Source: Acidobacteriota bacterium (GTDB lineage Bacteria > Acidobacteriota > UBA890 > WLXD01). Taken from it: a stretch of DNA of 64,000 nucleotides. The stretch lies in assembly GCA_963666055.2 (NCBI GenBank), contig CAXWPH010000007.1:224001-288000 (forward strand). The letters run 5' to 3'. A program made the translations under genes and the position numbers. The notes under the pieces were generated by a model, which searched no databases, had not been told where the DNA came from, and saw nothing but the letters and a program-made list of their open reading frames with translations. Below, piece after piece: positions 8,784 to 62,041 of the stretch. The first letter of the stretch is position 1. Every line of letters starts with the position of its first letter.

Positions 8784-8794
8784 TATTGTATCCA
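8784..8794. promoter_or_regulatory. Putative GntR operator, copy 1 (TATTGTATCCA)
   Basis: AT-rich motif in the divergent region between the SBP and M24 genes; recurs in five other promoter regions. Confidence 0.65.
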
Positions 8795-8830
8795 ACTTAT
8801 CCCGACACCACGCAAAGAGGGCGCGCTCCG

Positions 8831-10192
8831 GTGATCCGACGCATGGCGCAGCTGGCAGTCATCCTCTCCCTGCTGGGTTGCGCCCTGCCCGCTGGCGCTG
8901 CCCAGGACGACGTGCGCATGCTCGACGCCCGCGCGCGGTTCGAGACGCTGAACCTGATACGGGCGGACAAGTTCGACCTGATCCTCCCCGGTGCCATGCG
9001 CGACAACAACATCGATATGTGGATCCATGTGATCCGCTTGGGCAACCCCGACCCGCTGGAGCTCGATCTGGGCGCCGAGTTCGGCACCTTCGTGTTCAGT
9101 GATCGCGGCGGCGATCGCATCGAGCGCGCCTTGCTCGGCGGCTTCGGCAGGGGGCCGGGCATGCGCCAGACCTACGATATCTTCGGCTCGCTGGGCGACC
9201 TGCGACAGATGGTCGATGAGCGCGACCCGCAACGCATCGCCATCAACATGTCGTCCTGGCTGGGGGTTGCCGACGGCCTGTCACACACCGACTACGAGCG
9301 CATCACTGCGGAGCTGGGACCCTACGCGGAGCGCCTGGTGTCTTCCGGACAGCTGATCACCGACTTTCGGGTGCGTCGGGTCGAGCGTGAGATCGCCGCC
9401 TTCTCGACCGCCGGAGAGATCACCCGCCGCCTGAACGAGCGGGCGCTGAGCAACGAGGTGATCACACCTGGCGTCACCACCCGGGAGGACGTCGCCTGGT
9501 GGGTGCAGGAGCGCCTGCTGGAGATGGGCCTGCGCTCGTCTTTCGGCATCAGCGCCCCCGGGATTCTCTATTCGGCCGCGGCCAACAATGGCGGCGGCGG
9601 CGGCCGCAGCGACGTCATCCGACGCGGCGACTTCCTGTCGTACGACATGGGCGTCCGCTATCTGAACTTCGGCACCGACTTCAAACGCCACGCCTACATC
9701 ATGCCCGATGGAGAGACCGAGGTACCGGATTTCATCCAGCACGCCTGGGACCGCGGCCATTTCGCTCGCCAGGTGATCAAGGACAACATCAAGGTCGGAC
9801 GCACCGCCGGCGAGACGCTCGCCCACCTCGCGCGGGTTTTCGAGGACCTCGACTACGTATACACGCCGTTTACCGATGTCGGCGACGAGGACCGCGCCAT
9901 CATCGCGGCGCTGGAGGACGACCCGCGCTCCGGCATCTCGATCGACTGCCATACGGTGGGCAACACCGGCAACAGCGAGGTCGCGGTGGGACCGTCGTTG
10001 GCGCCCTTCCGCCCGGATCGCGCCGACGTTGTGATTCAGCCGAACAACATCTTCTCGCTCGAGTTCGTCGTCCACACGGCGATTCCGGGCGGCACTCGGC
10101 TGGCGATCAACTTCGAGGACAACGCCATCGTCACCGAGCACGGTGTCGAGTGGCTGTATCCGCCGAACTCACGCATCTTGATCGTCCGCTGA
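8831..10192 (+). CDS. Secreted M24 (pita-bread fold) metallopeptidase/amidohydrolase, copy 1
   Basis: Signal peptide. Metal ligands D (YDMG), D (TDFKR), H (DCHTVG), E (SLEF), E (FEDN). GTG start follows AAGAGGG. Confidence 0.85.
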   Translation: MIRRMAQLAVILSLLGCALPAGAAQDDVRMLDARARFETLNLIRADKFDLILPGAMRDNNIDMWIHVIRLGNPDPLELDLGAEFGTFVFSDRGGDRIERALLGGFGRGPGMRQTYDIFGSLGDLRQMVDERDPQRIAINMSSWLGVADGLSHTDYERITAELGPYAERLVSSGQLITDFRVRRVEREIAAFSTAGEITRRLNERALSNEVITPGVTTREDVAWWVQERLLEMGLRSSFGISAPGILYSAAANNGGGGGRSDVIRRGDFLSYDMGVRYLNFGTDFKRHAYIMPDGETEVPDFIQHAWDRGHFARQVIKDNIKVGRTAGETLAHLARVFEDLDYVYTPFTDVGDEDRAIIAALEDDPRSGISIDCHTVGNTGNSEVAVGPSLAPFRPDRADVVIQPNNIFSLEFVVHTAIPGGTRLAINFEDNAIVTEHGVEWLYPPNSRILIVR

Positions 10193-11055
10193 TGGACCTC
10201 CGCGTGAAGCGCCCGGGAGCCTTCTTGCTGACGCTGGCGCTGACCGCATGTGGCGGTGCACCGCAGTCGCAGGAATCGTCGAGCGCCGCCGACGGACCGC
10301 TCGACACAGAGCGAGGGACCGACGCTGAATCCGTCATCGGGCCACCCGATGGCATGCACCCCTTCTACCGCAAGTACCTCGACGCCGAAGGGGTGGCGAT
10401 CGTCAGCTCCGCAGCGGTTCCCGACGCGGCGCTGGTCGCGGCTCGACGGAACATCCTGCACCTGCTGAGCAGTCGGCCCGATGTGCACCAGGCGATGCTG
10501 CACCAGGTGCCGCGCATCTCGATCATGGCGATCTCGGAGACCGCCTCCGATTTGCCCGAGTTCGGCGCCAGCGCCGACGGCGAGTGGGGCCTCGGGCAGA
10601 TGCCCGGCGACCCGACCAGCCTCGTTTCAGAGCGCGGCATCTGCTATCCGGGCAACACCGAGTATCGTGCGAACTTCCTGCTGCACGAGTTCGTTCATGT
10701 AATGCAGAACCTGGGCTGGGCGACCACCGATCCGGGGGTCGAAGACGAGATCTTCGCGGCCTACCGGGCGGCGGTGGCGCGGGGGGAATTCGACGCCCCG
10801 GTCGGCGAGCCCGCGAACGTCACCCCGGCCGAGGCCTTCGGCGACGACGAGTACCTGACCCACAACGTCAACGCTTGGTTCGATCTCAACGAGTCGCTGC
10901 CGGGGCCCTGGGTCGACGTGCAGATCGGCGATAACGGGCCGCCTTCGGGCACTCGCGAGGAGCTTCGCCAGCGCGACCCGACGCTGTACGCGCTCATCGA
11001 GCGGTTCGTGCCCGACTCGCTGGGCGATCTGATGGACGGCTGTGCTGGGCGCTAG
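10192..11055 (+). CDS. HEXXH zinc metallopeptidase lipoprotein (lethal-factor/Pro-Pro-endopeptidase-like zincin)
   Basis: Real start is the ATG overlapping the M24 stop (TGATG). Lipobox LTAC; FYRKY, LLHEFVH, DEY..xVxAWFD, TREEL..RDP.LY. Confidence 0.75.
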   Translation: MDLRVKRPGAFLLTLALTACGGAPQSQESSSAADGPLDTERGTDAESVIGPPDGMHPFYRKYLDAEGVAIVSSAAVPDAALVAARRNILHLLSSRPDVHQAMLHQVPRISIMAISETASDLPEFGASADGEWGLGQMPGDPTSLVSERGICYPGNTEYRANFLLHEFVHVMQNLGWATTDPGVEDEIFAAYRAAVARGEFDAPVGEPANVTPAEAFGDDEYLTHNVNAWFDLNESLPGPWVDVQIGDNGPPSGTREELRQRDPTLYALIERFVPDSLGDLMDGCAGR

Positions 11056-13015
11056 CCGGCTGCTGGTGCTGGGCGCAGTCTTAGCAGCAGCACTCGGGAG
11101 CGGGGACGCCAACGCGCAAACGACCGGCGACCAGGAGACTCAACAGACTGACGACGCCAGCTCCGAAACGCCTGAGCTGCTGCGCATCTACTCCACCGCA
11201 ACCGTCATCGATCGTCCGATCTCCTCGGCGACCTCGGCAGTGTTCGTGATCGAGCGTGCGACCATCGAAGCGCTGGCGGCGCGTTCCGCCGCCGAGCTGC
11301 TGCGATTCGTCCCCGGCGTGCAATTGCTCACCGACGGCTCGCGCGGCGGCTCGACGGCAGCGCAGATACGTGGCGGCGACCCCAACTTCACGCTCGTGCT
11401 GCTCGATGGCATCCCGCTCAACGACACCAACGACCAGCAGGGCGGCGCCTTCAACCTCAACAGCCTGCCGACGGAGACGATCGAGCGCATCGAGGTGGTT
11501 TCCGGTCCGCTGTCGGCACACTTCGGCTCCACCGGTCTGGCTGGCGCCATCAACATCATCACGCGTGTCGGGTCAGCTGGCGCAGCCGCCCCGGGGAGCG
11601 GCGGGCCGTCGATCAGTGCTGCGATCGAAGGCGGTTCAGCCTCGTTGATTCGGGCCTCGACGCGGATCAGCAACTGGAAGCAGAGCCACGACTATTCGGC
11701 CGCGCTGCAATTCGAGCGTGAGCAGGGACGCGTCGGCGAGGACCGCTTCGAACAGTTCGACGCGCAGGCGCGGCTTGGTCTGCGGCCCACGGCGACCACT
11801 GATCTTCAGCTTACCGGTCGCGTCGCCAGCTGGGACGCCGATGACTACCCTGTCGCCTCCGGCGGGCCGATCTTCGGGTCTGGCGAGCTGCGAGCGTCGC
11901 ATAACGACGAGCTCAGCCTGGGCGCCGATCTGACCGTGAGTCCGACCGATCGACGGCAGTTCCGCTTCAACGCCTCCGTTTACCGTCACACGCTCGAACG
12001 AACCAGCCCGGCGGTGCCGCCGCTGGTGCCGGCTGCGGTCGAGGACGCCCGCTTCACGCGCGCCCGGCTGGGTGCCTCGGCGGTCTTCCGGACCTCCGAC
12101 GTGGGCTTCGTAAGCGCCGGGTTCGATGTGACCCGGGAGAGCGGCGACGTCGCCAGCGTCCTGGCGTTGCCGCCCTTTCTGGGCGGCGACATAGCCGGTA
12201 ACTACAACATCGCCCGGACTGTCGGCGGCCCTTTCGCCGAACTCGTGTTGGAGCTCGATGACGTCGTTATCGAGGTTGGCACCCGATTGGACTTCTCGGA
12301 CAGTAGCGACCCGCAGTTCAGCCCACGGTTCGGTATCGCCTACCGGACCGGCAGCGACACACGGATTCGCGCCTCAATCGGCCGCGCCTTCAAGCTGCCC
12401 AGCTTCTTCGCCCTCGCCAGCCCCCGGGCGCTCGGCGGCAACCCGGATCTGCTTCCCGAAACCTCATGGGGCGCCGACATCGGCCTGCAACACGAGTGGC
12501 GCGGTGCCGGCGTGAGCTTTGGGCTGACGGCCTTCTACAACCGCTTCAACGATCTCGTCGACTTCGATTTCGAGACCTTTCAGAACATCAATCGCAATGC
12601 CGTGGAGACGCGCGGCGCGGAGATGAGCCTCGGATGGCGAGCCGACGATCGCTTCAACGTCGCCGTCACCGTCACCCGCCAGGAAGTCGAAGACCTGAGT
12701 TCCCCGGAGCCGTTGTTGCAGCGACCCGAGTGGCTGTCGAGCCTTCGCGCCACCTGGAGAGCACACCATCGAGTGCTGCTGGCGCTCGACGTCCAGCAGG
12801 TTGCCGGCAGCTTCGACCGCCAGCTTCCTGTCCCCGGTCGAGACCGTGTCGATGGTCGCACGCTGCTGGGGATGAGCGGCTCATGGGAGCTCGCGCCGCA
12901 GGTCGCCGTCGTGGCGCGAGCCGACAACCTCGCCAACGCCAGCTATGAGACGCTCATCGGGTTCCCGGGGCCCTCGCGATCGCTTCGAGTCGGGATTCGA
13001 TACACCAGGCGCTAG
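11042..13015 (+). CDS. TonB-dependent receptor (BtuB/CirA-like)
   Basis: Signal peptide, plug motifs IRGG...LVLLDG and IERIEVVSGP.S..FG, FKLPSF, GNPDLLPE, DNLAN. Confidence 0.93.
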   Translation: MLGASRLLVLGAVLAAALGSGDANAQTTGDQETQQTDDASSETPELLRIYSTATVIDRPISSATSAVFVIERATIEALAARSAAELLRFVPGVQLLTDGSRGGSTAAQIRGGDPNFTLVLLDGIPLNDTNDQQGGAFNLNSLPTETIERIEVVSGPLSAHFGSTGLAGAINIITRVGSAGAAAPGSGGPSISAAIEGGSASLIRASTRISNWKQSHDYSAALQFEREQGRVGEDRFEQFDAQARLGLRPTATTDLQLTGRVASWDADDYPVASGGPIFGSGELRASHNDELSLGADLTVSPTDRRQFRFNASVYRHTLERTSPAVPPLVPAAVEDARFTRARLGASAVFRTSDVGFVSAGFDVTRESGDVASVLALPPFLGGDIAGNYNIARTVGGPFAELVLELDDVVIEVGTRLDFSDSSDPQFSPRFGIAYRTGSDTRIRASIGRAFKLPSFFALASPRALGGNPDLLPETSWGADIGLQHEWRGAGVSFGLTAFYNRFNDLVDFDFETFQNINRNAVETRGAEMSLGWRADDRFNVAVTVTRQEVEDLSSPEPLLQRPEWLSSLRATWRAHHRVLLALDVQQVAGSFDRQLPVPGRDRVDGRTLLGMSGSWELAPQVAVVARADNLANASYETLIGFPGPSRSLRVGIRYTRR

Positions 13016-13189: not shown

Positions 13190-14473
13190 TCAGGCGTGCA
13201 GCCGCCGGATCCTCGGAATGGCCCAGAGGACAAGCCCGAACGACACCGGGTGCAGCAGGCTGACGATAGCGAATATCGGTGCGTAGCTGCCCGACGAGGC
13301 CAGAATCCAGCCCACCAGGGCGGCGAAGGCCATGCCGCCGAAGGCGCCGGCGGAGCCGATCAGGCCGGCCACCGAACCCACCTGGCTCTTAGGGTAGAGG
13401 TCGGCGGGGAGCGTCTGCACGACGACGTTCCAGATCTGATGGCCCATGAAGGCCAGGCTGATGAACAGGATGGCAACGCCCGCTGGAACGGAAACCACCA
13501 GCGCCGCCGCCGGCATGAGCGCGGCGCCGAGCCCGAGGGTGATCTTGCGGGCGCGATCGAGGCTCTGCCCGCCGCTCAGCAAACGACTCGACAGCCAGCC
13601 GCCGAAGAGGCTGCCCAGACCTGCTGCCGCATACGGGATCCAGGCGAAGTAGCCGACCTCGGCGATGTTGAAGCCGCGCACGTCGAACAGATACTTGGGG
13701 ATCCAGAAGATGTAGAAGTACCAGACCGGATCGGTGAGGAACTTGATCACCAGCAGACAGCGCAGCTCGCGGTGTGCGAACAGCGCCAGCCAGCGCGGTG
13801 CCTCTTCGGCAGCGCCGTCGGCCTCCTCGCCGGCGCCCCCGGCCTCCTCGCGGTGCGCCACGCTGATGAGCTCCAGCTCCTCGGGGGTGATGCGTGGGTG
13901 CTCGTGCGGGAGCCGGTAGAAGAACGCCCAGTACAGACACCAGAGCAGCCCCAGCCCGCCGGCGACAAAGAACACCCAGCGCCAGCCCAGGGCGATCATG
14001 ATGAAGCTGAACAGCGGCACTGCGATCACCGAGCCGATGCTCGACCCGGTGTTGAACAGCCCGAAGGCAGTGGAGCGCTCGCGCGCCGGGAACCACTCCG
14101 ACACCGCCTTGCTCGAGGCGGGGAATCCCCCACCCTCCCCCATGCCGAGCAGGAACCGCGACACGGCGAGGCCGAGGAAGCTGTTGGAGAAGCCATGGGC
14201 GATCACTGCGAGCGCCCAGAAAACATTGATCAGAAGGAAGCCTGTGTAGGTTCCGAGTCGGTCGACCAGCCGCCCGCCCACGGCGTACATGATGGCGTAG
14301 GCGAACAGGAACAGGCTATTGAGAGTGGCGTACTGCGACTCGCTGATCGACAGCGCCACCTGCACCTGGATGATCACCACCGACAGGGTCATCCGGTCCA
14401 TGTAGTTGTTGACCGTGTCGAGCGTCACGACGCCGGCAACGCGCCAGCGGATGTTCTTGATCGTGCGGGCCAT
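13190..14473 (-). CDS. MFS transporter, ACS family (ExuT/hexuronate-transporter-like)
   Basis: RW...NYMDR, RFLLGMGEGGGFP, EWFPARERS, FLTDPVWYFYIFW.P.YL...RG. Confidence 0.9.
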   Translation of the reverse strand: MARTIKNIRWRVAGVVTLDTVNNYMDRMTLSVVIIQVQVALSISESQYATLNSLFLFAYAIMYAVGGRLVDRLGTYTGFLLINVFWALAVIAHGFSNSFLGLAVSRFLLGMGEGGGFPASSKAVSEWFPARERSTAFGLFNTGSSIGSVIAVPLFSFIMIALGWRWVFFVAGGLGLLWCLYWAFFYRLPHEHPRITPEELELISVAHREEAGGAGEEADGAAEEAPRWLALFAHRELRCLLVIKFLTDPVWYFYIFWIPKYLFDVRGFNIAEVGYFAWIPYAAAGLGSLFGGWLSSRLLSGGQSLDRARKITLGLGAALMPAAALVVSVPAGVAILFISLAFMGHQIWNVVVQTLPADLYPKSQVGSVAGLIGSAGAFGGMAFAALVGWILASSGSYAPIFAIVSLLHPVSFGLVLWAIPRIRRLHA

Positions 14474-14478
14474 GCCTG

Positions 14479-15513
14479 CTAGCGGCGCACCCACTCGAGC
14501 CGCGCGACGCGATAGCCGCTGAGATCTGGCATCACCGCGGTGACGTAGTAGCTGTCGGCCTCGCGGACAACCCAGGTGGCCTCACTGTCCAGCGTCGTCA
14601 CCAGGTAGCGGTCATCACCGACACCGAAGTCGAGCGGATCGGTGGATCGGTAAACAGAGGTCAGCATGCGCCCCCCGCCTGCCGGGCTCGAGTGCGTTCG
14701 GAACAGATAGTACGCCTGTGCTTCATCGATCCACAGCACGGCGGGCACCTCGCCATCGAACCAATCGCTACCGGCGCTACCACCTGCCGAGACGATGATC
14801 GACTCGCTCCAGGTCATCAGGTCGGGTGAGGTGCGTGCATAGACCGATCCCACTCCGCCCGGGTTGGCGGTGTAGTAGACATAGTAGGTGTCATCGAACT
14901 GCGTGATCATCGGATCGCGCGTGCTGTTGCCCAGCCCCTCATCGAACGCCCCGGCGATGCCGTCGCCGCCGATCTGGCGAGTGAACTCCTTGCCATCAGG
15001 GCTGCGAGCGAAGCAAATATGCTCCCAGTCTCCGTAGGCAAGAATCCATTCGTCGCCGATCCGCGTTGCGTGCGGCGACTGCAGGCCGCCGGGAGTCTCG
15101 CCGACGCTCGAGTCGGCCATCATGGCGATGCCGACAGGCTGCCAGTCGATGTCCGTAATGCGAGCACCTTCCCAGCGAAAGAAGAGCCGAGTATTGCCGC
15201 CGACGTTGGTCTTGCGGATACAACCCCACAGCTGCCAAGTTCCGTCGGCCGCCTGCCAAACGCCGAAGGCGGTGGGCTCCTGCTCCGCGCTGGTGAACTC
15301 GCCCAGATCCGGATTGCCGGCGATCCGCCACCACTCGCCGCTGATCTCCGGTACCAGCACACCGGCCGCAACTTCCTCCACCTCACCCTCTGGCTGACCA
15401 CACGCCTGCATCGCGCCGCCGAGCAGCGCCGCGACCATGATCCAGACCACAGGTGAGCTCTCGATGCCTGCAACCATCAACCCAGGCAGCGGCTTCGGCC
15501 TCGGGTCTGGCAT
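14479..15513 (-). CDS. Five-bladed beta-propeller glycoside hydrolase-like protein (GH32/43/130-like clan), probable lipoprotein
   Basis: QAADGTWQLWGCIR, LQSPH, ICFARS.DG, RDP, SPDLMTWS, EVP, YYLFRT. Confidence 0.65.
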   Translation of the reverse strand: MPDPRPKPLPGLMVAGIESSPVVWIMVAALLGGAMQACGQPEGEVEEVAAGVLVPEISGEWWRIAGNPDLGEFTSAEQEPTAFGVWQAADGTWQLWGCIRKTNVGGNTRLFFRWEGARITDIDWQPVGIAMMADSSVGETPGGLQSPHATRIGDEWILAYGDWEHICFARSPDGKEFTRQIGGDGIAGAFDEGLGNSTRDPMITQFDDTYYVYYTANPGGVGSVYARTSPDLMTWSESIIVSAGGSAGSDWFDGEVPAVLWIDEAQAYYLFRTHSSPAGGGRMLTSVYRSTDPLDFGVGDDRYLVTTLDSEATWVVREADSYYVTAVMPDLSGYRVARLEWVRR

Positions 15514-15518
15514 CGGCG

Positions 15519-16886
15519 TCAGCGAATTACGTGCCAGTCGGGAGCTCGATTCAGGAACTCGAAGCCGTTCTCGGTAAAGGCCACTATCTGACCGTGACCG
15601 AGCTCCAGACCTTGCTCGCCCCAGCCTTCGATGGTGACATCGATATGCGGTTCGAAGGCATAGAGGGTGTTGTGGTGCAGCGTGTGGTCGTTGGTAACGA
15701 TCGACGTCGACGCGTAGCCCGGGCCCGACGTCATGCCTACCACCGCGGTCTTGGTCGACAGCATCCAGCCGTCACGGTGGAAACGAAGCATGTATTTCGG
15801 CGGTGGATGAAAGTCGTTGGTCGGCGGACCAGCCAGGTTGTCGGGGAACGTCAAGGCGTCGGAGGCCGCAACGATCTCCTTGCCGGTGCGCCCGACCTTG
15901 AACTCGGCGGCGAACTGATCCTGGATTGCATTGGCCGTGTTGAGCGCATCCACCAGCTCGACAGGAACCTCCGTCTCGCCGTCGCGCAGCACATAGGCGT
16001 ATTGATGCGTATCGGTAACCAAGCCAAACATGAACACGTCGGTGTCGACTCGTAGCACATCACCGCGTCGGATCACCACGTCGATATCGTTGCGGGTGCG
16101 GGCGCCAACGACATGCTCCATCGGGTCGTCGTACTTCTCGATGTCCGCCAGACTACGCTGGATCGAGATGCTCGGGTGGTTCTCGTGCTCGATCCCCAGG
16201 TCGAGCATCCGTTGGCGGAACCACCAGTTGAGATCGTCCGTCGTGGTCACGTTCGGAGTGACGGTGGCGCTCGATAACGCCTCGGCGATGATCTCGTTCG
16301 CCAGTCCCACGACATCGCGGAAGCGCTCGATCATCTCCGGGCTTACGGTCTCGTACCAGCGCACACCGAGCGTCCACGAATCGATCGTGCGCGAGGCATA
16401 GCTTCCCAGCGCTGTGAGCATCGGCTCATTGTCGAATAGGCTGATCGCGATAGTGTCGGGATCACGTTCGGCAACGAGCTCGCCAATGTGGTCGTAGCTG
16501 CGCGGCTCGACGTACTCGATCTCATCGCCGTTGTCGTAGAACAGCAGGAACACCGGCTTCGAGTCGCCGTACTGGCCGTCGAAGATCATGCCTCGCAGAT
16601 CCGCTGGTACCAGTGACGAATAAACCGGCCCCTCGTTGTTGTAATAGAGGTCGGCCTCGTTGTCGCGAATGATCCACAGATCGACGCCCTGCTCACGCAT
16701 GACCATCGGGAGCACATTTCCCCGCTTCCACTGGGTCCAGCGTTCGGCAATCTCGACGCGCTCACGCAGCGGCGGCAATCTGCTGGCGTGGGGTCCCTCG
16801 GTGGCTTGCCGGGGCGGGGGCGCCACCTGACAGCCGGACACGGCTACGGCGATGACGGTCGTCGTCCAAAGAACTCGCGGGCGCAT
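15519..16886 (-). CDS. M24-fold lipoprotein, copy 2 (divergent site, lacks the last Glu ligand)
   Basis: Lipobox AVSGC. LPPLRER, VMREQG.DLWI, TPNVTTTDD, GDV..D...TD..QYAYVL, AFEP. AGGAGAGG RBS. Confidence 0.8.
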   Translation of the reverse strand: MRPRVLWTTTVIAVAVSGCQVAPPPRQATEGPHASRLPPLRERVEIAERWTQWKRGNVLPMVMREQGVDLWIIRDNEADLYYNNEGPVYSSLVPADLRGMIFDGQYGDSKPVFLLFYDNGDEIEYVEPRSYDHIGELVAERDPDTIAISLFDNEPMLTALGSYASRTIDSWTLGVRWYETVSPEMIERFRDVVGLANEIIAEALSSATVTPNVTTTDDLNWWFRQRMLDLGIEHENHPSISIQRSLADIEKYDDPMEHVVGARTRNDIDVVIRRGDVLRVDTDVFMFGLVTDTHQYAYVLRDGETEVPVELVDALNTANAIQDQFAAEFKVGRTGKEIVAASDALTFPDNLAGPPTNDFHPPPKYMLRFHRDGWMLSTKTAVVGMTSGPGYASTSIVTNDHTLHHNTLYAFEPHIDVTIEGWGEQGLELGHGQIVAFTENGFEFLNRAPDWHVIR

Positions 16887-16946
16887 GCTACCTCTCCTCG
16901 GGACCCGATCGCGCCTTGGACGACGGGCGACCGGCATTTTCGGACC

Positions 16947-20665: not shown

Positions 20666-20685
20666 CTGGACTCCCTCCCGGCGCC

Positions 20686-22450: not shown

Positions 22451-22476
22451 TATTGTGGACTGCATATTGTATACGA
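22451..22476. promoter_or_regulatory. Putative GntR operator, copy 2 (TATTGT...TATTGTATACGA)
   Basis: In the divergent region between the M14 operon and the MFS gene. Confidence 0.65.
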
Positions 22477-22501
22477 ATTTCCCAAACCTGGCATGGTTCA
22501 G

Positions 22502-26028: not shown

Positions 26029-26053
26029 AAGCGCTCCTTATTGAGACTGCGAT

Positions 26054-27046: not shown

Positions 27047-27063
27047 CCGGTTTGCCTCACGAG

Positions 27064-28350: not shown

Positions 28351-28369
28351 GTGGCACCGAGCCGCTGGC

Positions 28370-41464: not shown

Positions 41465-41531
41465 CGTGATTGGCTTCCTGTTTCGCGGTTCGTTTCAGCG
41501 GAGCGGCGTGCGCCTTAGGTCAGTCGGGCAG

Positions 41532-44080: not shown

Positions 44081-44088
44081 GGGCTCTA

Positions 44089-44362: not shown

Positions 44363-44451
44363 GACGGGCGATGCGGCGACCAGCGGCACCGTAGCGGCAA
44401 GAGCTGCCAAACGGCACATCTGCGTGGTCCCGGTACGTGCTGGAAAATCGT

Positions 44452-44470
44452 CGACACAATATCGTATACA
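44452..44470. promoter_or_regulatory. Putative GntR operator, copy 4 (overlapping inverted pair CGACACAATA / TATCGTATACA)
   Basis: About 35-50 bp upstream of the orphaned M28 signal-peptide ATG (44419). Confidence 0.55.
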
Positions 44471-44526
44471 CAAAGCAATAGCATCCGCGGCGCTGCGGCG
44501 GCGGCGGCATCGATGTGCCTGGCAGG

Positions 44527-44556
44527 GCAGGCCGTGGTGAAAGTGTCGCCTGCTAG
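44527..44556. repeat. Third, isolated copy of the MITE terminal repeat (GCAGGCCGTGGTGAAAGTGT-CGCCTGCTAG)
   Basis: 20-bp identity to 44089-44108. Ends in CTAG, which supplies the stop codon of the GWxTD gene. Confidence 0.75.
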
Positions 44557-46802: not shown

Positions 46803-46805
46803 GCC

Positions 46806-47949: not shown

Positions 47950-47960
47950 TATTGTATCCA
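47950..47960. promoter_or_regulatory. Putative GntR operator, copy 5 (TATTGTATCCA)
   Basis: Identical 11-mer to copy 1; in the divergent region between the TPR and CRTAC1 genes. Confidence 0.65.
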
Positions 47961-47982
47961 GTTACCCGCCTACGGCCTGCGC

Positions 47983-49722: not shown

Positions 49723-49837
49723 CGCCAGCCGGAACGCGGCAGCCTTGGGGTAACTCCCTTCTTCGTGTTTCGAAGATTCCATACACTTGCTCGCAGCGCC
49801 CGCCCAGTCGTGTCTTCCGCCGCAGGAGCAACCTCTG

Positions 49838-54122: not shown

Positions 54123-55846
54123 TGCGCCGACCGCGCCACGACGCCGTAGCGCTCGTCGACCACCAGCCGGCCGGGCTGTTGCTCCGGTAGCCGCAAGATC
54201 TCGCCACCTGGCCAGCGGATCTCGACGGCTTCTGCTACCCCGGACGGGAGATAGAACAACAGCCGGGCATCGTTGGCGCCGGCGTAGCCATCGCTGTCGC
54301 GCAGCTGAATCCGCTGCTCGATGGCGCCGGAGCGCACGACCACGTCGGCTCCGTAGCCGGAGCGGTTCGATCGGCGGCCGACCAGCGTGATCCTCAGCGC
54401 CGCGTGCGCCATCGACGTGTCGTTGCGGATCAATGTGGGGCGCGCATCGATGTTGGTCACCAGCAGATCGAGATCGCCGTCGTTGTCGAAGTCACCTCGT
54501 ACCGCGCCGCGCGACGACTCGCGGATCGCCAAGGCGTCGCCGGCCGTCGCAGTCACCGTTGTGAAGTCGGCCGCGCCCGACTCGCGCAACCGGTTCACAT
54601 ACAGCGAGTTGAGCTGCCGGTACGGCTCGATGCCGCGCTCCGCGACAGCTGGGTGGATGTGGCCGTTGGCGACGAACAGATCCTGATCGGCGTCGCCGTC
54701 GATATCGAGAAACAGTGCCGACCACCCCATGTACGGAAAGCTGCTGGCCGCCAGCCGGCGCAGGTCGGTCTCGTCCTGGAAGACGCAGTCGCCGAGGTTA
54801 CGGTAGAGCGTGTTGTGGTCGTTGTGGAAGTTGGTGACGTACAGATCGAGCCGCCCGTCACCGTCGAAGTCGGCGCTGGTCACCCCCATGCCCGCCTGCT
54901 CGCGACCGTCGGCGCTGTACCCGGCGCCCGACAGCAGTCCCTGCTCGTCGATCTCGCCAGCGGGAGTGTGCCGGTACAGGAGGTTCATCATCGAGTCGTT
55001 GGCGACGTAGATCTCCGACAACCCGTCGTCGTCGCAGTCGATCGCAGCCAGCGCCAGCCCGTACCCAGCGGCCTGATCGACGCGGTCCGACATCCACTCG
55101 ACGAAGGTGCCGTCGGCGAGATTGCGATACAGGAGGTCGCGCTGCCCGACCAGCCCCTCGGGCCCGCAGAACGCCTCGACGCCCGCATAAGAGCACCGAC
55201 TTTCTCCCCGCGACGGCACCGAGGTGGCCTGCAGATCCACGTAGCGAGCCACGTAGAGGTCCAGGTTGCCGTCCGCATCCCAATCCGTGAAGGTGGCGCT
55301 GGCGCCCCAGCCGGGATCCTCCACCCCGTTGGACCAAACCGCAAAGGTCCCGTCACCGTTGTTGCGATACAGCCGGTCGGCGCCGATGGCGGCGATGAAC
55401 AGGTCTGGCCAGCCATCGTTGTCGACGTCGCCCCAGGTGACGCCGGTGCCCCATACGACCTCGCGTACTCCGGCGGAGATCGGCGCCTCGCGAAACGTCT
55501 GCCCATCGCCGCGGTACAAGCGGTGTCCCGCGCCGCGGCGGCCCGCGGCCAGTGCCGGGTGGGGGGCCGGTTGAGCGATCTGCACGGTGGATCCCGTCGC
55601 CTCGGACAACGCGTTCACCAGCACGACGTCGAGGTTGCCGTCGACGTCGAAGTCCAGGAACGCCGCTCCGGACCCGGTCGACTCGGTGATGTAGGACTTG
55701 TCGAGGCTGCCGAAAGTCTGCACCAGGTCGAGGCCTGAGTTGGCCACCGCACGCAGGTCCAACGCCTGGGCAGGCAGCCCCGCCGGCGCCACAGTGAGGG
55801 TCAGCGATGCCGCCACCAGGAGCCGCCCGCCGGGGCTAGCCGCCAT
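54119..55846 (-). CDS. CRTAC1-family protein (FG-GAP plus ASPIC/UnbV), second copy
   Basis: ESTGSG...DFD.DG, FCGP, QAGMG, SSRG..RGDFDNDGD.D, SNRSG.GA, RWPGG. Confidence 0.9.
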   Translation of the reverse strand: MAASPGGRLLVAASLTLTVAPAGLPAQALDLRAVANSGLDLVQTFGSLDKSYITESTGSGAAFLDFDVDGNLDVVLVNALSEATGSTVQIAQPAPHPALAAGRRGAGHRLYRGDGQTFREAPISAGVREVVWGTGVTWGDVDNDGWPDLFIAAIGADRLYRNNGDGTFAVWSNGVEDPGWGASATFTDWDADGNLDLYVARYVDLQATSVPSRGESRCSYAGVEAFCGPEGLVGQRDLLYRNLADGTFVEWMSDRVDQAAGYGLALAAIDCDDDGLSEIYVANDSMMNLLYRHTPAGEIDEQGLLSGAGYSADGREQAGMGVTSADFDGDGRLDLYVTNFHNDHNTLYRNLGDCVFQDETDLRRLAASSFPYMGWSALFLDIDGDADQDLFVANGHIHPAVAERGIEPYRQLNSLYVNRLRESGAADFTTVTATAGDALAIRESSRGAVRGDFDNDGDLDLLVTNIDARPTLIRNDTSMAHAALRITLVGRRSNRSGYGADVVVRSGAIEQRIQLRDSDGYAGANDARLLFYLPSGVAEAVEIRWPGGEILRLPEQQPGRLVVDERYGVVARSAQ

Positions 55847-58193
55847 CGATTTGCTGACGTAGCTGCTGGCCTCGACGGGCCCATTCCTGCGCCCGCGCCG
55901 GCTCGCCTGTTCGGTTGTACAGATCGGCGAGCAGAAAGTAGCCGAGGGTCATGTCGGGGGGTTCGAGCTGCTCCGCGATCGCCCCCTCGACCATCTCGAT
56001 GGCGCGCTGCAGGTCGCCGCCGCGCCGCAGCATCAGGCGTGCCATGAAGAGGTTGCCCTGCGCAAAGTCGGTATCGAGCTCGAGCACGCGCTGCAACTGC
56101 CGGTGCTCGTCGTCCTCACGCCCCATCTTTCGGTAGACCATCGCCAGGTTGAAGTGGGCGGCGACGTCCTCGGGAACGGTTTCGAGCTCCTGCAGGTACT
56201 CGCGCACCGCTGCCGCCGGCTCGCCGCGCTGGTCGTGAATCTCGGCCAGCACCGCGTGCACCCCGATCAGCCGATCGTTGAGCTCGAGCGCGGCACGCGC
56301 GTAGCTTTCGGCGTCGTCGAAACGGTCCAGATGGAAGTACACCTGCGCCAGGCCCCCGCGCGACGACGACCCGTCGGGGTTGAGCTCCAGGCATCGCTGG
56401 AACGCGGCTATCGCGTCGTCGAGCTCGCCCTGGCGCCTGAGAACGTCGCCAAGAAGAAAGTACAGCTGGGCGTTGTCGCCCACCAGCTCCAGGCCGTCCC
56501 GAACGGTCTTCTCGGCCTCTTCGAGGCGCCGCAGGCCGACCAGGGCATCGGAGGCGAAGATGTAAGCGTACGGGTCGTCGGGCTTGAGCGGGATGGAAGC
56601 GCTGTAAGCCTCGACCGCCTCCTCCAGGCGTCCCTGCTGGAAGTACAGCTCGCCCAGCGTGTGGTGCGCATCGACAATGCCCGGGTCTTCTTCCAGCACC
56701 TCGCGCAGCAGGCGCTCGGCCTCGGCAAACTCGTCGCGGTTCATCGCTTGCCTTGCTTCAAGCGACTTGTTGTAGATCTCGATCTTGGTGCGCGGACTGG
56801 GCAGATCCGAGCCATCGTCGTCGATCGCCTGGAAGGTCCCGACGTAGCCGAGGCTGACGAGCTTGCGTCGCGTCTCCTCGTCGAGGTCAACGGCGGTCGA
56901 CGAGCTGGCGCCTTCGCTCCACGTGGCGATCTGTTCCTCCGCCGAGCGCGTCATCTCGAAGACCACCGTGTTCAGCGTACCGGCCAGGTTGTGCTCCTCG
57001 GCCGGGTCTTCGATCAGATCGTAGAGCTCCGGGTCCGACGACAGGATGAGCTTGTAGCGCTCGTCGCGCAGCGCCCGCAGATCACTCCAACCGTAGTGCA
57101 ACCGTGCGTACCAGCTCTCGGAGTAGATATATCGCTCCTCGGGCTCGGTCCCTGACTCGAACAACGGTGCGAGGCTGCGACCTTGGAATTCGAGGCCGGG
57201 CTCCAACCCGATGATCTCGAGCACCGTCGGCATGACGTCGACAATCGACACCAGCTCGGAGCGTCGCTGACCACCGTAGTTGCCGAAGGGGACGCGCATG
57301 ATGAGCGGCACGTGCGTTGCCTCGTCGTAGACGAAGAAACCGTGTTGCGCCTCGCCGTGTTCCCCGAGGCTCTCGCCGTGGTCGGCGACGATCACCAACA
57401 GCGTGCTGTCGAGCAGCTCACGCTGGCGCAGCTCCTGCACCAACCGTCCGACCTGGGAGTCAGTGTAGGCGATCTCGCCCAGGTAGGGGCGGCCCGGGTA
57501 CTGCGACTTGTAGGGCTCCGGCGGATCGTAGGGGGCGTGCGGATCGTACATGTGCAACCACATGAAGAAGGGCTGTTCGGGGGCCTGCTGAGAGGCCCGC
57601 TGGGAGGATTCCGGCGCCGGCTGATCGAGCCAATCGATCGCCTGGTCGACCACCTCGCTCGCCGGCCGCTGCACGCTGCCCATGGCGATCACCCGCTGGC
57701 CACGTACGTCGAAGTCGTCGACGTAGTGGTCGAACCCTTGATCGATGCGCCAGCGCCGATCGAGGACGTAGGCCGCGACGAAGCCCCCGGTGCGGTATCC
57801 GGCCGCTCCCAAGACCTCCGCCAGGGTCTCGGCCTCCTCGGGGACGAGATAGCCGCCGTTGTCGATGACGCCATGCAGCAGCGGGTAGTTGCCGGTGAAC
57901 AGCGACGTGTGCGCCGGCAGCGTCAGCGGCGTGGTCGAGTGGGCGTTCTCGAACAGCACCCCGTGGCGCGCCAGGCCATCGATCGCCGGCGTCGAGATAT
58001 CGCTGAAGCCGTAGGCGCCGAGGCGATCGGCGCGCAGCGTGTCCAGCGTCACCACCACCACGTTGTAGGGGCCTTCGCCACGTGCATCGGCGACGCTGCC
58101 CGACGGTGACCCGCCGCTGCATCCGACGGCGCACCAGGCGAGCAGCGTGACCGCAAACCGAGCCCGGGTTGTGCCGCTGCGCCGTAACGCCAT
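55836..58193 (-). CDS. Sulfatase-like (alkaline phosphatase superfamily) lipoprotein with C-terminal TPRs
   Basis: Lipobox AVGC, DTLRAD, TLPAH (no C/S-x-P-x-R), HMYDPH.PY, ADHGE.LGEH, ELYDL..DP.E, L.SLGY, then TPRs. Confidence 0.9.
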   Translation of the reverse strand: MALRRSGTTRARFAVTLLAWCAVGCSGGSPSGSVADARGEGPYNVVVVTLDTLRADRLGAYGFSDISTPAIDGLARHGVLFENAHSTTPLTLPAHTSLFTGNYPLLHGVIDNGGYLVPEEAETLAEVLGAAGYRTGGFVAAYVLDRRWRIDQGFDHYVDDFDVRGQRVIAMGSVQRPASEVVDQAIDWLDQPAPESSQRASQQAPEQPFFMWLHMYDPHAPYDPPEPYKSQYPGRPYLGEIAYTDSQVGRLVQELRQRELLDSTLLVIVADHGESLGEHGEAQHGFFVYDEATHVPLIMRVPFGNYGGQRRSELVSIVDVMPTVLEIIGLEPGLEFQGRSLAPLFESGTEPEERYIYSESWYARLHYGWSDLRALRDERYKLILSSDPELYDLIEDPAEEHNLAGTLNTVVFEMTRSAEEQIATWSEGASSSTAVDLDEETRRKLVSLGYVGTFQAIDDDGSDLPSPRTKIEIYNKSLEARQAMNRDEFAEAERLLREVLEEDPGIVDAHHTLGELYFQQGRLEEAVEAYSASIPLKPDDPYAYIFASDALVGLRRLEEAEKTVRDGLELVGDNAQLYFLLGDVLRRQGELDDAIAAFQRCLELNPDGSSSRGGLAQVYFHLDRFDDAESYARAALELNDRLIGVHAVLAEIHDQRGEPAAAVREYLQELETVPEDVAAHFNLAMVYRKMGREDDEHRQLQRVLELDTDFAQGNLFMARLMLRRGGDLQRAIEMVEGAIAEQLEPPDMTLGYFLLADLYNRTGEPARAQEWARRGQQLRQQIDGG

Positions 58194-58275
58194 CGCTGGT
58201 CGCCTGCAACAGGGAACGGTGAGTCCGGTGGTCAGGGATCGGGTGTCACCAGCGAGGCGTACCGGGGCCCTGCCC

Positions 58276-58313
58276 AAAACAAGTACGGGGGAACGGATCG
58301 CTCCGTCCCCCCG
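58276..58313 (-). terminator. Probable intrinsic terminator after the TonB receptor
   Basis: GC hairpin GGGGGAACGGA-tcgc-TCCGTCCCCC followed on the minus strand by TACTTGTTTT. Confidence 0.6.
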
Positions 58314-58341: not shown

Positions 58342-61176
58342 CTAGAAGTTCAAGACGAATCCAAGCCGGATGTTGCGCGGGAAGCGGAGGTTTCGGGTCG
58401 CCGCGAAGGCATCTGACGGGTTGTCGTTGAAGGGGTCGTCCTCGGTTTGGACCCTCGTTATGGTACCGGAGTTGAAGACGTTGAACACGTCCGCCATGAC
58501 GCGCAGCTGCGCCCGCCCGATCGGGTACCGCCCCTCGACTCGGAGATCGAGGTTGACCTGCGTCGGAGTGCGCCGGGAGCCGCGTGGCTCGACGAAGACG
58601 CCGCGGTTACGCCCGGTAAAGTCGACATCGCGGAAGCGGAGACTGCGCTGATAGGGCATACCGGACTGGATCCAGAAGAACCCGCCGACCGCGATATGGC
58701 TGCCGATCCGCGCGCTTCCGGTCGCCTTGATGTTGTGCGGCCGGTCGCCTTCTAAGGGGCCGTCCGCGTTGAAGTGGTTGTTGGGGTTTCTCCAGTTACG
58801 CGAGGGTCCGAGCGACGATCCGCGGTTGTTCTCGAACGCGGTGTCGTCGGTGCCCTTGGTGCGGCCGTAGAAGTACGACAGGTTGGCGCTCCAGCCGTCG
58901 GCGAACCGCTTCTCGAAGCTCAGGCCCACGCCGTCGTACCTGCGCGACTGGGTGAAGCCGTTGAAGTCGAACGGCGACAGGATCGGCAGCCGCTCCGGGT
59001 TCGTGTTCAGAAACTCCGATTCGTCTACGTTCGTCTGATCCCACAGCTGGTAGCTCTCCCCGGTACCCGACGGGGTTTGGTTATCGACTCCGGTGAGGTT
59101 TCGGAATATGCCGTTGCCCAGGCGGTAGTCCATGAAGTCCTTGGTGCGTCGGTTGATGTAGGTGAGCTCGACGCCGATCCTTCGGCTCAGCTGGCGCTCG
59201 ATGCCGACGCTGAACTCGTTGAAGTAGCTCATCCGCAGGTTCGGGTCGATCGGCGTGAGGGGCGACTGGAACTCGGTGAACTCGAGCTCGTACTCGTCGC
59301 CGTTCCAGAAGAAGCCCTGGAATATCGACTCTCCCGGCGCCAAGTACATGCTGGTGATGATCTGCGAATAGTACTTACCGAAGTGTCCCTTCAGGGCCGT
59401 CGTACCGTCGCCCAAAAGGTCATAGGTAAGGCCTATACGTGGTGCGAACCCGGTCTTCGGCTTGAAGGGGGTACCGAAATCATCCGTAACCGCCGGAATG
59501 CCGGTGGCGGCACCCCTATCCGTCACTGCCGAGCCCTGCCAGGAAGTAATGCGTACGCCAGGGTTGATCGTCAGGCGATCGCCGCCGAGCGTCCAGGCAT
59601 CCTGCGCGAAGAACGCGATCGTCCGGTTCTTGGGCTGGTCGTTCTGGGACGGCAGCTCGTACTTGTAGAGCGGCTCGCCGGCATAGTCGATGTAGAACGC
59701 CCCGCCGGTATACCCGGTATGGGTGCGCGTCGGATCGCTCGACGACTGGAACCCCGCCTTGAAGTCGTGCGAGCCACCGAGGAACTCGTCGGCGTAGTGA
59801 CTGATCGAGGCGTTCAGCTGGTAGCGGTTCCGGGTGCGATCGAAGAAGAAGCCCGGGCTCCCGGTCAACAGGCCAGTGGCCTCGTCGACGCGACCAGGAG
59901 GCAGAGGATTGCTCAGGTCGGTATCCGGGTTGATGTCCGTCGCGCCCGGATAGTCTGAGCTGGCGTTGGCGGCCAGGCCGGCGTGAATCTCGAGCACCGT
60001 GTCGGGGTTGAAAATGCGCAGGTAGTCGACGAAGTAGGTGTCCCACTTCCCCCACGGCGCGAATACGGCCTCTGGCGCGACAAACAGGTCGGCCGGGTCC
60101 ATTCCGCTCTCGCGCTCATACGCGATGCTCCCCTGCAGCCTGTCCTTTTCCGAAATTTGCCAGGAGAGCTTACCGAACATTGCCCAACGACTGGCGAACC
60201 CCTCGGTGCCGCCCGAGACCTCGGTCGCAAAGTTCGACTTGGAGCGACGATACGAGCCGTAGCCCCAGAGCGTGTTGGCCGCCAGCGGACCACCGATGTC
60301 GATGTGTTGCTGGTTGTTGTTGTTGATGGTCTGGATGAACTGCGGGTCGTCGGAGTTCTGCGAGTTCCAGCCGTTGGCGCGCACGAAGTAATTCGCCGTG
60401 CCCTGCAGCCGCGGTCCACCGGACTTGGTCACCAGGTTCATCACCATGCCGCTGTAGCCACCGACCTCTGCCGGGGCACCGACGCCGCCGAACGAAGCCT
60501 CGGCGACGTTGTCGACATCCATCTGCATCTCGACCTCGCCGCCCTCGGCGGAGTTCACCAGCACGCCGTCGTAGGAGAACTGGGTCCCCTGATTCGTACC
60601 GCCTAGCGCCGACGCGCCCCGACCTGAGGCACCGCCGGAGCTGCGCGTTCTACCGAGGTTGGCACCCGGTGCCATGCCGAGAAAGTCCGACGCACCGCTG
60701 TTGCTGCGGTTGGCCGGCAGCGCATCGAGGTATTCGTTGCTGAACGTGGTGGTGTTGGAGGACGACCCCCTGACATCGACCAACGGCGCCTCACCGGTGA
60801 CCGTGACGGTCTCCGTCACACCGCCGATCTCCATGGTGAAGTTGACCGCCAAGGTGGCACCCATGCTCACCCGGACGTCGTTCTGCTGCATCGGCCCGAA
60901 GCCTTCCAGCGTCGCGTCGACCGTGTAGAGCCCAGGTGGCAGTGCTGGCGCTCTGTAGCGTCCGTCGATTCCGGTGACCATGACGCTCGGCACCATCAGC
61001 ACCGGGCCGGAAACGGCTACCGTCACACCTGGCAATGGTGCGCCGTCAGGATCCGTAATGGTCCCGTTCAGCGTGCCGGAGCGGCCGGTGGCGCCCTGCG
61101 CCATGACGTTCGTCGGTGTGGTCAGCAACAGGACAAGGGCTGCGGTAATGGAAATCAGCCAAACAGCGCGTCGCAT
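58342..61176 (-). CDS. Oar-like TonB-dependent receptor with N-terminal carboxypeptidase-regulatory domain
   Basis: G.ITD.DGA.LPGVTV, ETVTV.GEAPLVD, VTKSG, QDAW, APRIG.TYD..GDG.T, DVFNVFN, C-terminal Phe. GAGGAGAG RBS. Confidence 0.93.
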   Translation of the reverse strand: MRRAVWLISITAALVLLLTTPTNVMAQGATGRSGTLNGTITDPDGAPLPGVTVAVSGPVLMVPSVMVTGIDGRYRAPALPPGLYTVDATLEGFGPMQQNDVRVSMGATLAVNFTMEIGGVTETVTVTGEAPLVDVRGSSSNTTTFSNEYLDALPANRSNSGASDFLGMAPGANLGRTRSSGGASGRGASALGGTNQGTQFSYDGVLVNSAEGGEVEMQMDVDNVAEASFGGVGAPAEVGGYSGMVMNLVTKSGGPRLQGTANYFVRANGWNSQNSDDPQFIQTINNNNQQHIDIGGPLAANTLWGYGSYRRSKSNFATEVSGGTEGFASRWAMFGKLSWQISEKDRLQGSIAYERESGMDPADLFVAPEAVFAPWGKWDTYFVDYLRIFNPDTVLEIHAGLAANASSDYPGATDINPDTDLSNPLPPGRVDEATGLLTGSPGFFFDRTRNRYQLNASISHYADEFLGGSHDFKAGFQSSSDPTRTHTGYTGGAFYIDYAGEPLYKYELPSQNDQPKNRTIAFFAQDAWTLGGDRLTINPGVRITSWQGSAVTDRGAATGIPAVTDDFGTPFKPKTGFAPRIGLTYDLLGDGTTALKGHFGKYYSQIITSMYLAPGESIFQGFFWNGDEYELEFTEFQSPLTPIDPNLRMSYFNEFSVGIERQLSRRIGVELTYINRRTKDFMDYRLGNGIFRNLTGVDNQTPSGTGESYQLWDQTNVDESEFLNTNPERLPILSPFDFNGFTQSRRYDGVGLSFEKRFADGWSANLSYFYGRTKGTDDTAFENNRGSSLGPSRNWRNPNNHFNADGPLEGDRPHNIKATGSARIGSHIAVGGFFWIQSGMPYQRSLRFRDVDFTGRNRGVFVEPRGSRRTPTQVNLDLRVEGRYPIGRAQLRVMADVFNVFNSGTITRVQTEDDPFNDNPSDAFAATRNLRFPRNIRLGFVLNF

Positions 61177-61223
61177 GTGAGCTCTCCTCGATGGGGCTGC
61201 GGGCAACGTGAGTGGAGTGTGAT

Positions 61224-62000
61224 TCACGGGGTTCCGTCTCGGGCGTGCCGGTCGCCCGGATTCTCGGAGTCCTTTGCCGACGCGGCGGTCGGCTCGGGCT
61301 CCATCGGCAGGTTATCGCCGGCCGGACGCATTCTAGCGTAGGGCCAGCTGTTGGTCTGATAGTCGTGATAGGTCTTCGAACGGTTCTCCTTCAGCACCTC
61401 TATGGCACGCTCAATGCTGCCGGCTTCGATAGCGTCGAGTATCTGGTCGTGCTGCTCGATCGACTCGGTCCACTCGCTGATATGCGAGAACGCCCAGATC
61501 TCCAGGCTCTTCACCTTGGAGCGGAGCTCGTCGAGCATACGCAGCAAGCGATCATTGCTCGAGCCGGCCGACAGGAGGTGGTGAAACTCGTGGTTTACAG
61601 CGATGCCAGCCTTGATGTCCTGTTCGGCGAACGCGGCGCGATAGCTCCGGTTCACTTCCCGAAGCTCCTCCAGAGCGTCGGCGTCGAGCCGCGGGAACGA
61701 CTCCTCTGCGGCCAGCACCTCGAGCGCGCACATGATCGGGTAGAACTCGGCGAGGTCGGCGGCAGATTCCTCGGGCACCCGAAAGCCACGATGGGGAATG
61801 CGCTCGAGAAACCCTTCGGACGCAAGACGACCCAGCGCTTCTCGCACCGGCGTGCGGCTGACCTGCAGTCGCGCGCTCACGTCTTGTTCCCGAATGAATT
61901 CACCAGGCTTCAGGCTCGCGGCCAACACGCGATCTCGGAGGATCTGATAGACCTGATCGGTCAGCGTAGCGGTACGCAGGAGCGGCCAAGTCTCACTCAA
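61224..62000 (-). CDS. GntR-family transcriptional regulator (FCD subfamily); start uncertain (TTG 62000 or upstream)
   Basis: QVYQ.LR..VL, L.VSRTPVREAL..L..EG, N.EFH, S..QH..I..AI. Confidence 0.93.
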   Translation of the reverse strand: MSETWPLLRTATLTDQVYQILRDRVLAASLKPGEFIREQDVSARLQVSRTPVREALGRLASEGFLERIPHRGFRVPEESAADLAEFYPIMCALEVLAAEESFPRLDADALEELREVNRSYRAAFAEQDIKAGIAVNHEFHHLLSAGSSNDRLLRMLDELRSKVKSLEIWAFSHISEWTESIEQHDQILDAIEAGSIERAIEVLKENRSKTYHDYQTNSWPYARMRPAGDNLPMEPEPTAASAKDSENPGDRHARDGTP

Positions 62001-62010
62001 TAACTGCCCA

Positions 62011-62041
62011 TAGTGTATGGAATATTGTATGCAGTATTCGA
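62011..62041. promoter_or_regulatory. Putative GntR operator, copy 6 (autoregulatory array TAGTGTATGGA-A-TATTGTATGCA-GTATTCGA)
   Basis: Tandem copies of the motif directly upstream of the GntR gene. Confidence 0.7.

Follow-up and report, generated by a model that had tools for sequence, protein, structure and literature searches.

A stretch of 64,000 nucleotides from an Acidobacteriota bacterium (hereafter the window, positions 224001-288000 of contig C7 in the source genome G000; G001 onward are the other genomes compared) carries a repeated palindrome, TTGTATACAA, which is most probably the operator of the FCD-type GntR regulator encoded at 61224-62000, and we put the probability of this at roughly 0.8. 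The operator reading is well supported by a weight matrix of independent origin, by the match of helix and motif to a solved complex, by footprints in two families and by co-occurrence of the sites with the regulator. As proposed here, the GntR would repress its own gntR-TonB operon together with about nine peptide- and small-acid-scavenging promoters, from which a metabolite would likely release it. Judged from sequence, the FadR/VanR-type operator set is real and conserved, and the kind of switch is a textbook one.

The palindrome and its sites

A sequence-only reading of the window had proposed the motif TATTGTATNCR in all five divergent promoter regions and before the M28 gene. In fact exact matches occur five times in the window, all on the plus strand (8784, 22465, 34605, 47950 and 62023), a number reached by 0 of 100 shuffled windows; with one mismatch allowed, 44460 joins to make six (shuffles: mean 0.85, max 4), and the proposed distribution is thereby borne out with five exact matches and one near match. 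Genome-wide there are nine exact matches in 5.73 Mb, five of them inside the window, and TATTGTA is present in 5/5 divergent intergenic regions of the window versus 5/558 elsewhere in the genome (as counted from our own crude codon-based gene calls), so that the motif is locally enriched rather than equally common genome-wide. The repeat itself stands, while its exact frame does not: the true unit is the palindrome (A)TTGTATACAA(T), which begins 1-2 nt further right than TATTGTATNCR, and the TA at the head of that motif is for the most part the end of an extra half-site. The cores are imperfect copies of the palindrome, an extra half-site is usually present 7-14 bp from it, and the fullest form is TGTATAC-W-GTATACA, doubled at 7 bp. 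The sites fit the known A/T-rich palindrome of the FadR/VanR subfamily, with TKGT/ACMA boxes whose GT and AC stand 2 nt apart (GT-N2-AC). The sites in the window are as follows, where ranks refer to the matrix described below.

8786..8795, predicted operator core TTGTATCCAA between the divergent oppA and M24 units, with a half-site some 7 bp upstream; rank 11/563
22467..22476, predicted operator core TTGTATACGA between the divergent M14 and MFS units, with the half-site TGCATA lying 7 bp upstream; rank 5/563
34600..34616, predicted operator TTGTATA-TTGTATTCGA between the divergent ThuA-cytochrome-TRAP and ureohydrolase units, its two boxes separated by 7 bp; rank 45/563
44448..44471, predicted operator TCGTATACAC (44462-44471) with a second box TCGTCGACAC 14 bp upstream, heading the M28 operon
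47952..47961, operator-like core TTGTATCCAG between the divergent TPR-GWxTD and CRTAC1 units; rank 17/563; not conserved
49777..49786, weak site TTCCATACAC ahead of the VPS10/sortilin-repeat gene; score 6.9
62012..62041, gntR promoter array with core TTGTATGCAG at 62025-62034 and boxes at 12 bp and 7 bp on either side; rank 7/563

The array at 62012..62041 agrees with the earlier statement that the densest array lies directly upstream of gntR. The inverted partner that had been described within 44452-44470 is a second, weaker box at 44448-44457. The earlier list was incomplete, as the weak seventh site at 49777 before the VPS10 gene had been missed and sites also lie outside the window.

A matrix derived from the six sites of the window itself was circular, and it was for this reason replaced by one built only from 12 published FadR-subfamily cores (PMC4494728 S1). 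Part of that source describes TKGT/ACMA boxes with 2-nt spacing in several FadR-subfamily groups, with extra boxes 7-12 nt from the centre, and its S1 lists the 10-mer TTGTATACAA 127 times. With the published-site matrix the divergent regions of the window rank 5, 7, 11, 17 and 45 of 563 (hypergeometric P 2.6e-6), and the M28 promoter region ranks 9 of 1963 co-directional regions; in an AT-matched control, 18 of 175 other divergent regions reach 7.9, the lowest window score. Among the matches listed, 19 of 79 upstream regions of distant GntR genes score at least 10, where shuffles give a mean of 8.3 and a maximum of 13.

The set extends beyond the window. When the extra box is included in the scoring, six promoters of C7:155-286 kb are in the top 12 rows genome-wide, three of them outside the window (C7:155908, 183629 and 201654/201661), and the ten intergenic cores of C7 that score at least 10 are all confined to 148.9-286.0 kb. 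With at least three further sites outside the window, the set therefore spans about 130 kb; the 60-kb regulon proposed earlier holds as a set and is understated in size. The outside sites head a second TRAP system, genes for DUF885 proteins, an aldo-keto reductase, sodium-solute symporters and a pyrroloquinoline quinone (PQQ) dehydrogenase, and M24 and M28 genes. Other candidate sites in the genome are at C15:1302043, C11:45719, C15:1420945 and C15:1126861. The first of these is the best single site in the genome, a 20-bp perfect palindrome centred on TTGTATACAA (C15:1302038-1302057) and flanked by the genes of a HAD hydrolase and of a secreted protein.

The cores are also kept in relatives. 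Across 21 orthologue pairs they are identical at 193 of 210 positions, the flanks at 850 of 1092. The 8786 core is identical (10/10) in G001 and G002, the 62025 core in G001, G002 and G004, and the 44462 core in G002 and G007, with a score of 16.3 in G001; the 22467 core scores 9.3 in G002. A near-consensus site precedes the ThuA orthologue in G007 and G012, and across rearrangements in G007, G012, G013 and G021 the sites track the ThuA, aldo-keto reductase, TRAP and TPR orthologues. Moreover in another family (G012, G013, G021), the ThuA operon, the aldo-keto reductase, both TRAPs and the TPR gene keep the site in new divergent pairings. In four GntR-less genomes (G009, G011, G019 and G022) TATTGTATNCR occurs once or twice, which is the level of the reversed control. 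A separate observation is that in G004 (C2:853-873 kb), G007 (C2:2825-2847 kb) and G003 (C27) the locus is in fragments with many genes broken, and some operator copies persist.

Within the order, 8 of the 12 genomes with the GntR have an extended 15-mer and 0 of the 14 without it do, which speaks for the regulator. Several points weigh against the operator reading. The 15-mer was designed after the sites in those genomes had been seen, kin are not independent, 10 of the 14 GntR-negative genomes are less than 90% complete, and its exact form is absent from 4 of the 12 carriers. The matrix also matches unrelated places such as the dnaA-dnaN gap; the high-scoring single boxes there and before cspA-like genes (labels from translations) were taken as false positives. 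The helix alone predicts the motif only partly. The 22467 core has decayed in G001 (-1.9), scores of 3.4-4.2 are found for the 34607 core in both G001 and G002, and peptidase promoters near gntR in G005 score 0.3-7.3. Finally G003 and G007 keep sites yet carry only a paralogue-type GntR, and the promoter of that gene is itself devoid of a site there (-0.8 to 2.5); the binder can therefore be a different protein.

The 44460 site stands 380 bp from the M28 start, with a multicopy insertion between.

44087..44363, strand not assigned, 277-bp multicopy element with terminal inverted repeats (a miniature inverted-repeat transposable element, MITE) between operator and M28 gene

An invertible promoter was considered for this site on account of the inverted repeat and was rejected, the repeat being the multicopy insertion element, which is absent there in G002. 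The element has terminal inverted repeats of about 25 bp, is often found at CTAG, and has a partial copy near 44526-44547; 99 near-full-length copies are present in G000 and many in the genus and family, and no longer autonomous partner was found among pairs of repeat ends within 4 kb. A TATTGTA at 13112 was left out of the counts, since it lies between convergent genes in a hairpin (CCTTAC-TATT-GTAAGG, 13090-13125), possibly a terminator; no Rfam family was found in the window.

The regulator, its promoter and competing readings

61224..62000, minus strand, gntR, predicted FCD-type (VanR-like) repressor; helix SRTPVREAL; FCD residues N136/H140/H184/N206

The gntR start, judged from orthologues, is TTG at 62000. 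The protein matches PF00392 and PF07729, both over cut-off, with an N-terminal winged helix-turn-helix and a C-terminal FCD domain that is all-helical in the predicted model, with six helices; its top fold match is Atu1419. One homologue, 86% identical, carries the label Acidobacteriota. In the part of PMC7797058 that treats the solved complex, Atu1419 contacts ATGTATACAT via Ser44, Arg45, Thr46, Arg49 and Glu34; the matching residues of the window GntR, S48/R49/T50/R53/E38, are invariant in 12/12 aligned homologues, and the position of Arg31 is taken by Phe. As in Atu1419, the Ser-Arg-Thr-x-x-Arg of helix 3 in the dimer may read the G of each TGTAT half-site, and the extra boxes 7-14 bp away may recruit a second dimer. 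In the FCD domain H140 and H184 are present, while the third metal histidine is replaced by Asn206 in 12/12 homologues, a pattern that departs from the canonical metal-binding FCD (three His plus Asn/Asp). The effector would be bound in this FCD pocket, with the Asn in place of the third metal histidine; most likely it is an amino or imino acid derived from peptides, or else a small carboxylate.

The predicted -35 (62036-62041) and -10 (62012-62017) of gntR are overlapped by the operator array, and a consensus promoter scan gives TTTACG-17-TACAAT with an alternative -10 inside the operator; under either choice of -10 the predicted operator covers the promoter core, sitting in the spacer between -35 and -10. 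The gntR promoters of G005, G012, G013, G018 and G021 score 8.5-18.1, and four of them, read by eye, follow one layout of TTGACN, an 18-nt spacer with the palindrome, TA(C/T)AAN, 7-8 nt and ATG, whose -35/-10 spacing is found in G000 as well. The window gntR has a conserved site in its own promoter core, with additional boxes 7-12 nt away. As a side observation, the 18-nt spacers and the ATG 7-8 nt past the -10 suggest leaderless mRNAs in the order.

In the short divergons the operator embeds TAnnnTA, which may be the shared -10 of a bidirectional promoter, so that one site would silence both directions. The same symmetry can be taken for the whole signal, the motif being then a plain sigma-70 element with TATTGTA as the symmetric shared -10 (TAnnnTA) of bidirectional promoters and with no repressor. 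TATTGTA does fit the 18-bp bidirectional arrangement described in part of bioRxiv 10.1101/2020.01.31.928960, the promoter scan at gntR does return TTTACG-17-TACAAT, and at 47950 only TATTG(T/C)A survives in relatives. However, TAnnnTA is found in 142/558 other divergent regions as well as in 5/5 window divergons, while TATTGTA is found in only 5/558; the gntR promoters of other genera carry the motif in the spacer and not at the -10; the extended motif is missing from 14/14 genomes without the GntR; and the bases outside the heptamer are conserved. A sigma element without a repressor is thus highly improbable for the set, though it probably explains the 47950 site, and TAnnnTA is better read as the promoter beneath the operator.

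The operator of the window GntR has also to be weighed against an operator of some other protein. There are three FCD proteins in the genome, among which the window GntR is the only intact one of the SRTPVR type. It had been called the only regulator gene, which is right for the window save a Phd/YefM antitoxin and fails about 860 bp past the window edge, where a truncated paralogue (C7:288640-289400; 288860) is 56% identical and is missing about 52 residues at its N-terminus, among them S-R-T of the helix. A long poly-G run precedes it, a possible assembly artefact, and the paralogue is intact in G002, G003, G004 and G007. The third FCD GntR (C15:1279279-1280100) has the helix SRNTMREAL and its own palindrome TTGTTCAACAA beside a TTGACA box, and it sits ahead of amino-acid permease-like and amidohydrolase-like genes (labels from translations). 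Should the assembly be wrong, the same-helix paralogue could be the binder, or else an unrelated regulator: the poly-G run hints at assembly trouble, G003 and G007 have sites with a paralogue-type GntR only, and many FadR-subfamily groups share the motif, with 127 occurrences in the S1 part of PMC4494728. But the paralogue of G000 is without S-R-T, the third protein differs in helix and in palindrome, the densest array stands at the window gntR and the site there is kept in two families; another binder is hence very unlikely, and the window GntR is preferred.

Predicted target genes and the envelope genes

The units headed by the predicted operators are listed below.

881..8743 (start approximate), minus, Opp-type ABC peptide transporter with a hydantoin/Asp-Glu racemase-family gene and an M29-like gene
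8843..13015, plus, M24 peptidase, HEXXH lipoprotein, BtuB-like TonB receptor
13190..22401, minus, three M14 carboxypeptidases, M24-like protein, beta-propeller protein, ACS-type MFS transporter
22493..23773, plus, MFS transporter
24664..34256, minus, ThuA-like protein, multi-domain cytochrome c, DUF7133 protein, TRAP dctQMP, M24 peptidase
34692..35645, plus, agmatinase-like ureohydrolase (under equivalog cut-offs)
35685..44080, minus, M28 peptidase, aldo-keto reductase, proline-racemase-superfamily enzyme, SDR, M24-like protein, TPR protein, M24 peptidase
58342..61176, minus, TonB-dependent receptor with carboxypeptidase-regulatory-like domain, following gntR in the relatives examined
62244..64000, plus, Gfo/Idh/MocA oxidoreductase and TPR gene, divergent from gntR

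In total the predicted units hold Opp, five M24-fold, three M14 and one M28 proteins, two TonB receptors, TRAP and two MFS transporters, and further two racemase-type enzymes (Asp/Glu and proline superfamily), a ureohydrolase, an aldo-keto reductase, an SDR, Gfo and ThuA-cytochrome c-DUF7133. The predicted firm members of the regulon are gntR-TonB, Opp, the M24/M14/M28 operons, ThuA-cytochrome-TRAP, the aldo-keto reductase and Gfo-TPR; the TPR gene divergent from gntR has an orthologue with its own site in G012, G013 and G021. Metatranscriptome contigs (three runs of one study; 6-8% of words) include near-identical pieces on the TonB gene, in which starts, strand and level are not readable.

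Among the M24-fold proteins, three keep D-D-H-E-E, the M24 metal-ligand pattern, and two are without the His; these two (15519-16937 and 38188-39624) miss the last Glu too, and are possibly of different chemistry or inactive. No PDB sequence match was found for the M24 protein at 8843. In the proline-racemase-superfamily enzyme the dyad is Ser/Cys, which is that of cluster 9 in part of PMC4113996. The predicted lipoprotein at 10192-11055 has a HEFVH zincin motif, no Pfam match and an Atlas cluster in which 27% of members have an ATLF-like domain, and it is likely an uncharacterised metallopeptidase; related domains are found at C7:166439 and C7:203979. A PIN / Phd-YefM toxin-antitoxin pair is inserted at 23778-24531, which was not found there in G001 and is a fragment in G002. 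The 75-aa open reading frame at 34306-34533 was set aside, for it looks like non-coding sequence or a remnant; in G002 a 17-kb insertion is present at this place. Paralogues of the TPR gene and of the TonB receptor stand at either end of the locus (1-861 and 63230-64000; C7:218940-223136), which suggests an old duplication of a TonB-TPR module.

Between these units lie the genes of the envelope families.

44553..47864, minus, TPR/carboxypeptidase-regulatory protein and GWxTD-domain protein
47983..52633, plus, CRTAC1-like protein and VPS10/sortilin-repeat protein
52644..58277, minus, sulfatase-TPR, CRTAC1-like (FG-GAP/ASPIC) and TPR genes; operator control uncertain
58286..58313, minus, intrinsic-terminator-like hairpin, 12 bp stem with T tail, right after the TonB receptor

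The sequence-only reading had placed both the catabolic operons and the GWxTD, CRTAC1 and VPS10 genes under the same GntR, tying these families to nutrient scavenging. Its operator part is upheld on the evidence given above and its envelope part is weak. A regular control of this kind has some observations in its favour: the 118-bp gap between TPR-GWxTD and CRTAC1 contains a site of 10.5 bits, the promoter of the true VPS10 orthologue in G002 reaches 16.0 (6.9 in G000), the gntR operator of G005 faces a sulfatase gene, the TPR gene has sites in G012, G013 and G021, and the sulfatase-TPR/CRTAC1/TPR genes are near gntR in G001, G002, G005 and G012 (in G013 the sulfatase gene only), so that with both families represented a shared physiology is possible. 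However, the 47952 core, 10.5 in G000, falls to 0.7 in G002 and -2.0 in G001. Neither close relative thus retains it, although the flanking sequence is 47/52 and 45/52 identical there and so better conserved than the core itself. Upstream regions scoring at least 10 number 1 of 18 scored for CRTAC1 homologues (20 fetched, 2 too short), 0 of 15 for TPR and 1 of 18 for VPS10, the single VPS10 match being the G002 orthologue, with many paralogues or internal genes in all three samples; and the CRTAC1 divergons of G012 and G005 score 1.6-2.9. As the hairpin follows the TonB gene, the gntR transcript may not extend into the sulfatase-CRTAC1-TPR genes. These comparisons do not support direct control of GWxTD and CRTAC1 beyond this strain, the two would be at most a strain-level addition to the regulon, and we judge regular control of the three families to be unlikely.

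A wider picture is that of an order-wide peptide utilisation locus of about 130 kb run by one GntR with a non-canonical FCD pocket, in which the TonB receptor with its CRTAC1, TPR, VPS10 and GWxTD neighbours would serve to capture a modified peptide (hydroxylated, D- or glyco-) at the cell surface. This picture is doubtful; if true, it would be the peptide counterpart of a polysaccharide utilisation locus and the first pathway for the CRTAC1, TPR, VPS10 and GWxTD families. As it stands, our analysis gives no function yet to GWxTD or CRTAC1 proteins. In the literature searched, nothing was found on GWxTD, nor on CRTAC1 with Acidobacteria and TonB.

Meaning and comparison with known systems

No published regulon of such kind in Acidobacteria was found in a search that left most subscription journals and RegPrecise outside. 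What is new here is a well-supported regulon in an order of Acidobacteriota, with about 60 poorly annotated genes in one predicted response, which groups M24/M14/M28 peptidases, DUF885 proteins, ThuA-cytochrome-DUF7133, two TRAP systems, racemases and TonB receptors. To name the ligand of the GntR would be to name the nutrient scavenged by these bacteria.

The GntR encoded in the S. meliloti hyp cluster (an unannotated record, identified by position), which we take to be HypR-type, shares 28% identity with the window GntR across 191 aa; unrelated FCD GntRs are 25-37% identical to the window GntR among the matches listed, and the S. meliloti protein is no closer. As far as the HypR regulon of Proteobacteria/Alteromonadales is described in parts of PMC5343134, with sites in PMC4494728 S1, it shares with our set a GntR/FadR-subfamily repressor, the same operator consensus (predicted HypR sites are ATTGTATACAAT, including TATTGTATGCAA with a preceding GTATA half-site), autoregulation, and targets among which are a TonB receptor, TRAP, MFS and ABC transporters, proline peptidases and proline-racemase-family enzymes. 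Unlike HypR, with its helix SRIPVR, the GntR here has SRTPVR, and its set has more peptidases, ThuA-cytochrome, two TRAP systems and an Acidobacteriota host. Before the hypE/hypO/hypD-like genes (C3:42006-44245, C6:388092) no clear site is seen, with scores of 8.4 and 8.5 inside the upstream gene and 0.3, hypH not being searched. With the operator consensus shared, and orthology and core genes not, the regulon is by sequence HypR-like in design, not HypR; a Streptomyces HypR is given a different motif in part of PMC6608401.

Atu1419 of Agrobacterium fabrum (VanR subfamily; parts of PMC7797058, PDB 6Z74/6ZA3), the top fold match, has the same helix residues, and its sites overlap -10 boxes and lie between the -35 and -10 of its own gene. 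It differs in that the window GntR is about 28% identical to it, that it governs hydroxycinnamate degradation, and that its Zn site is N137/H141/H192/H214, of which the last His is Asn206 here and in 12/12 homologues. The predicted Arth_3541 group of Actinobacteria, as listed in part of PMC4494728 S1, has the identical SRTPVREAL helix and tandem sites, and one listed site contains TATTGTATGCAG, the sequence at 62023-62034; unlike the window GntR, this group belongs to another phylum and has small local regulons. Bidirectional sigma-70 promoters, as treated in part of bioRxiv 10.1101/2020.01.31.928960, share the TAnnnTA symmetry embedded in the short-divergon sites, whereas the conserved extension, the tandem boxes and the co-occurrence with the GntR are unaccounted for by such promoters.

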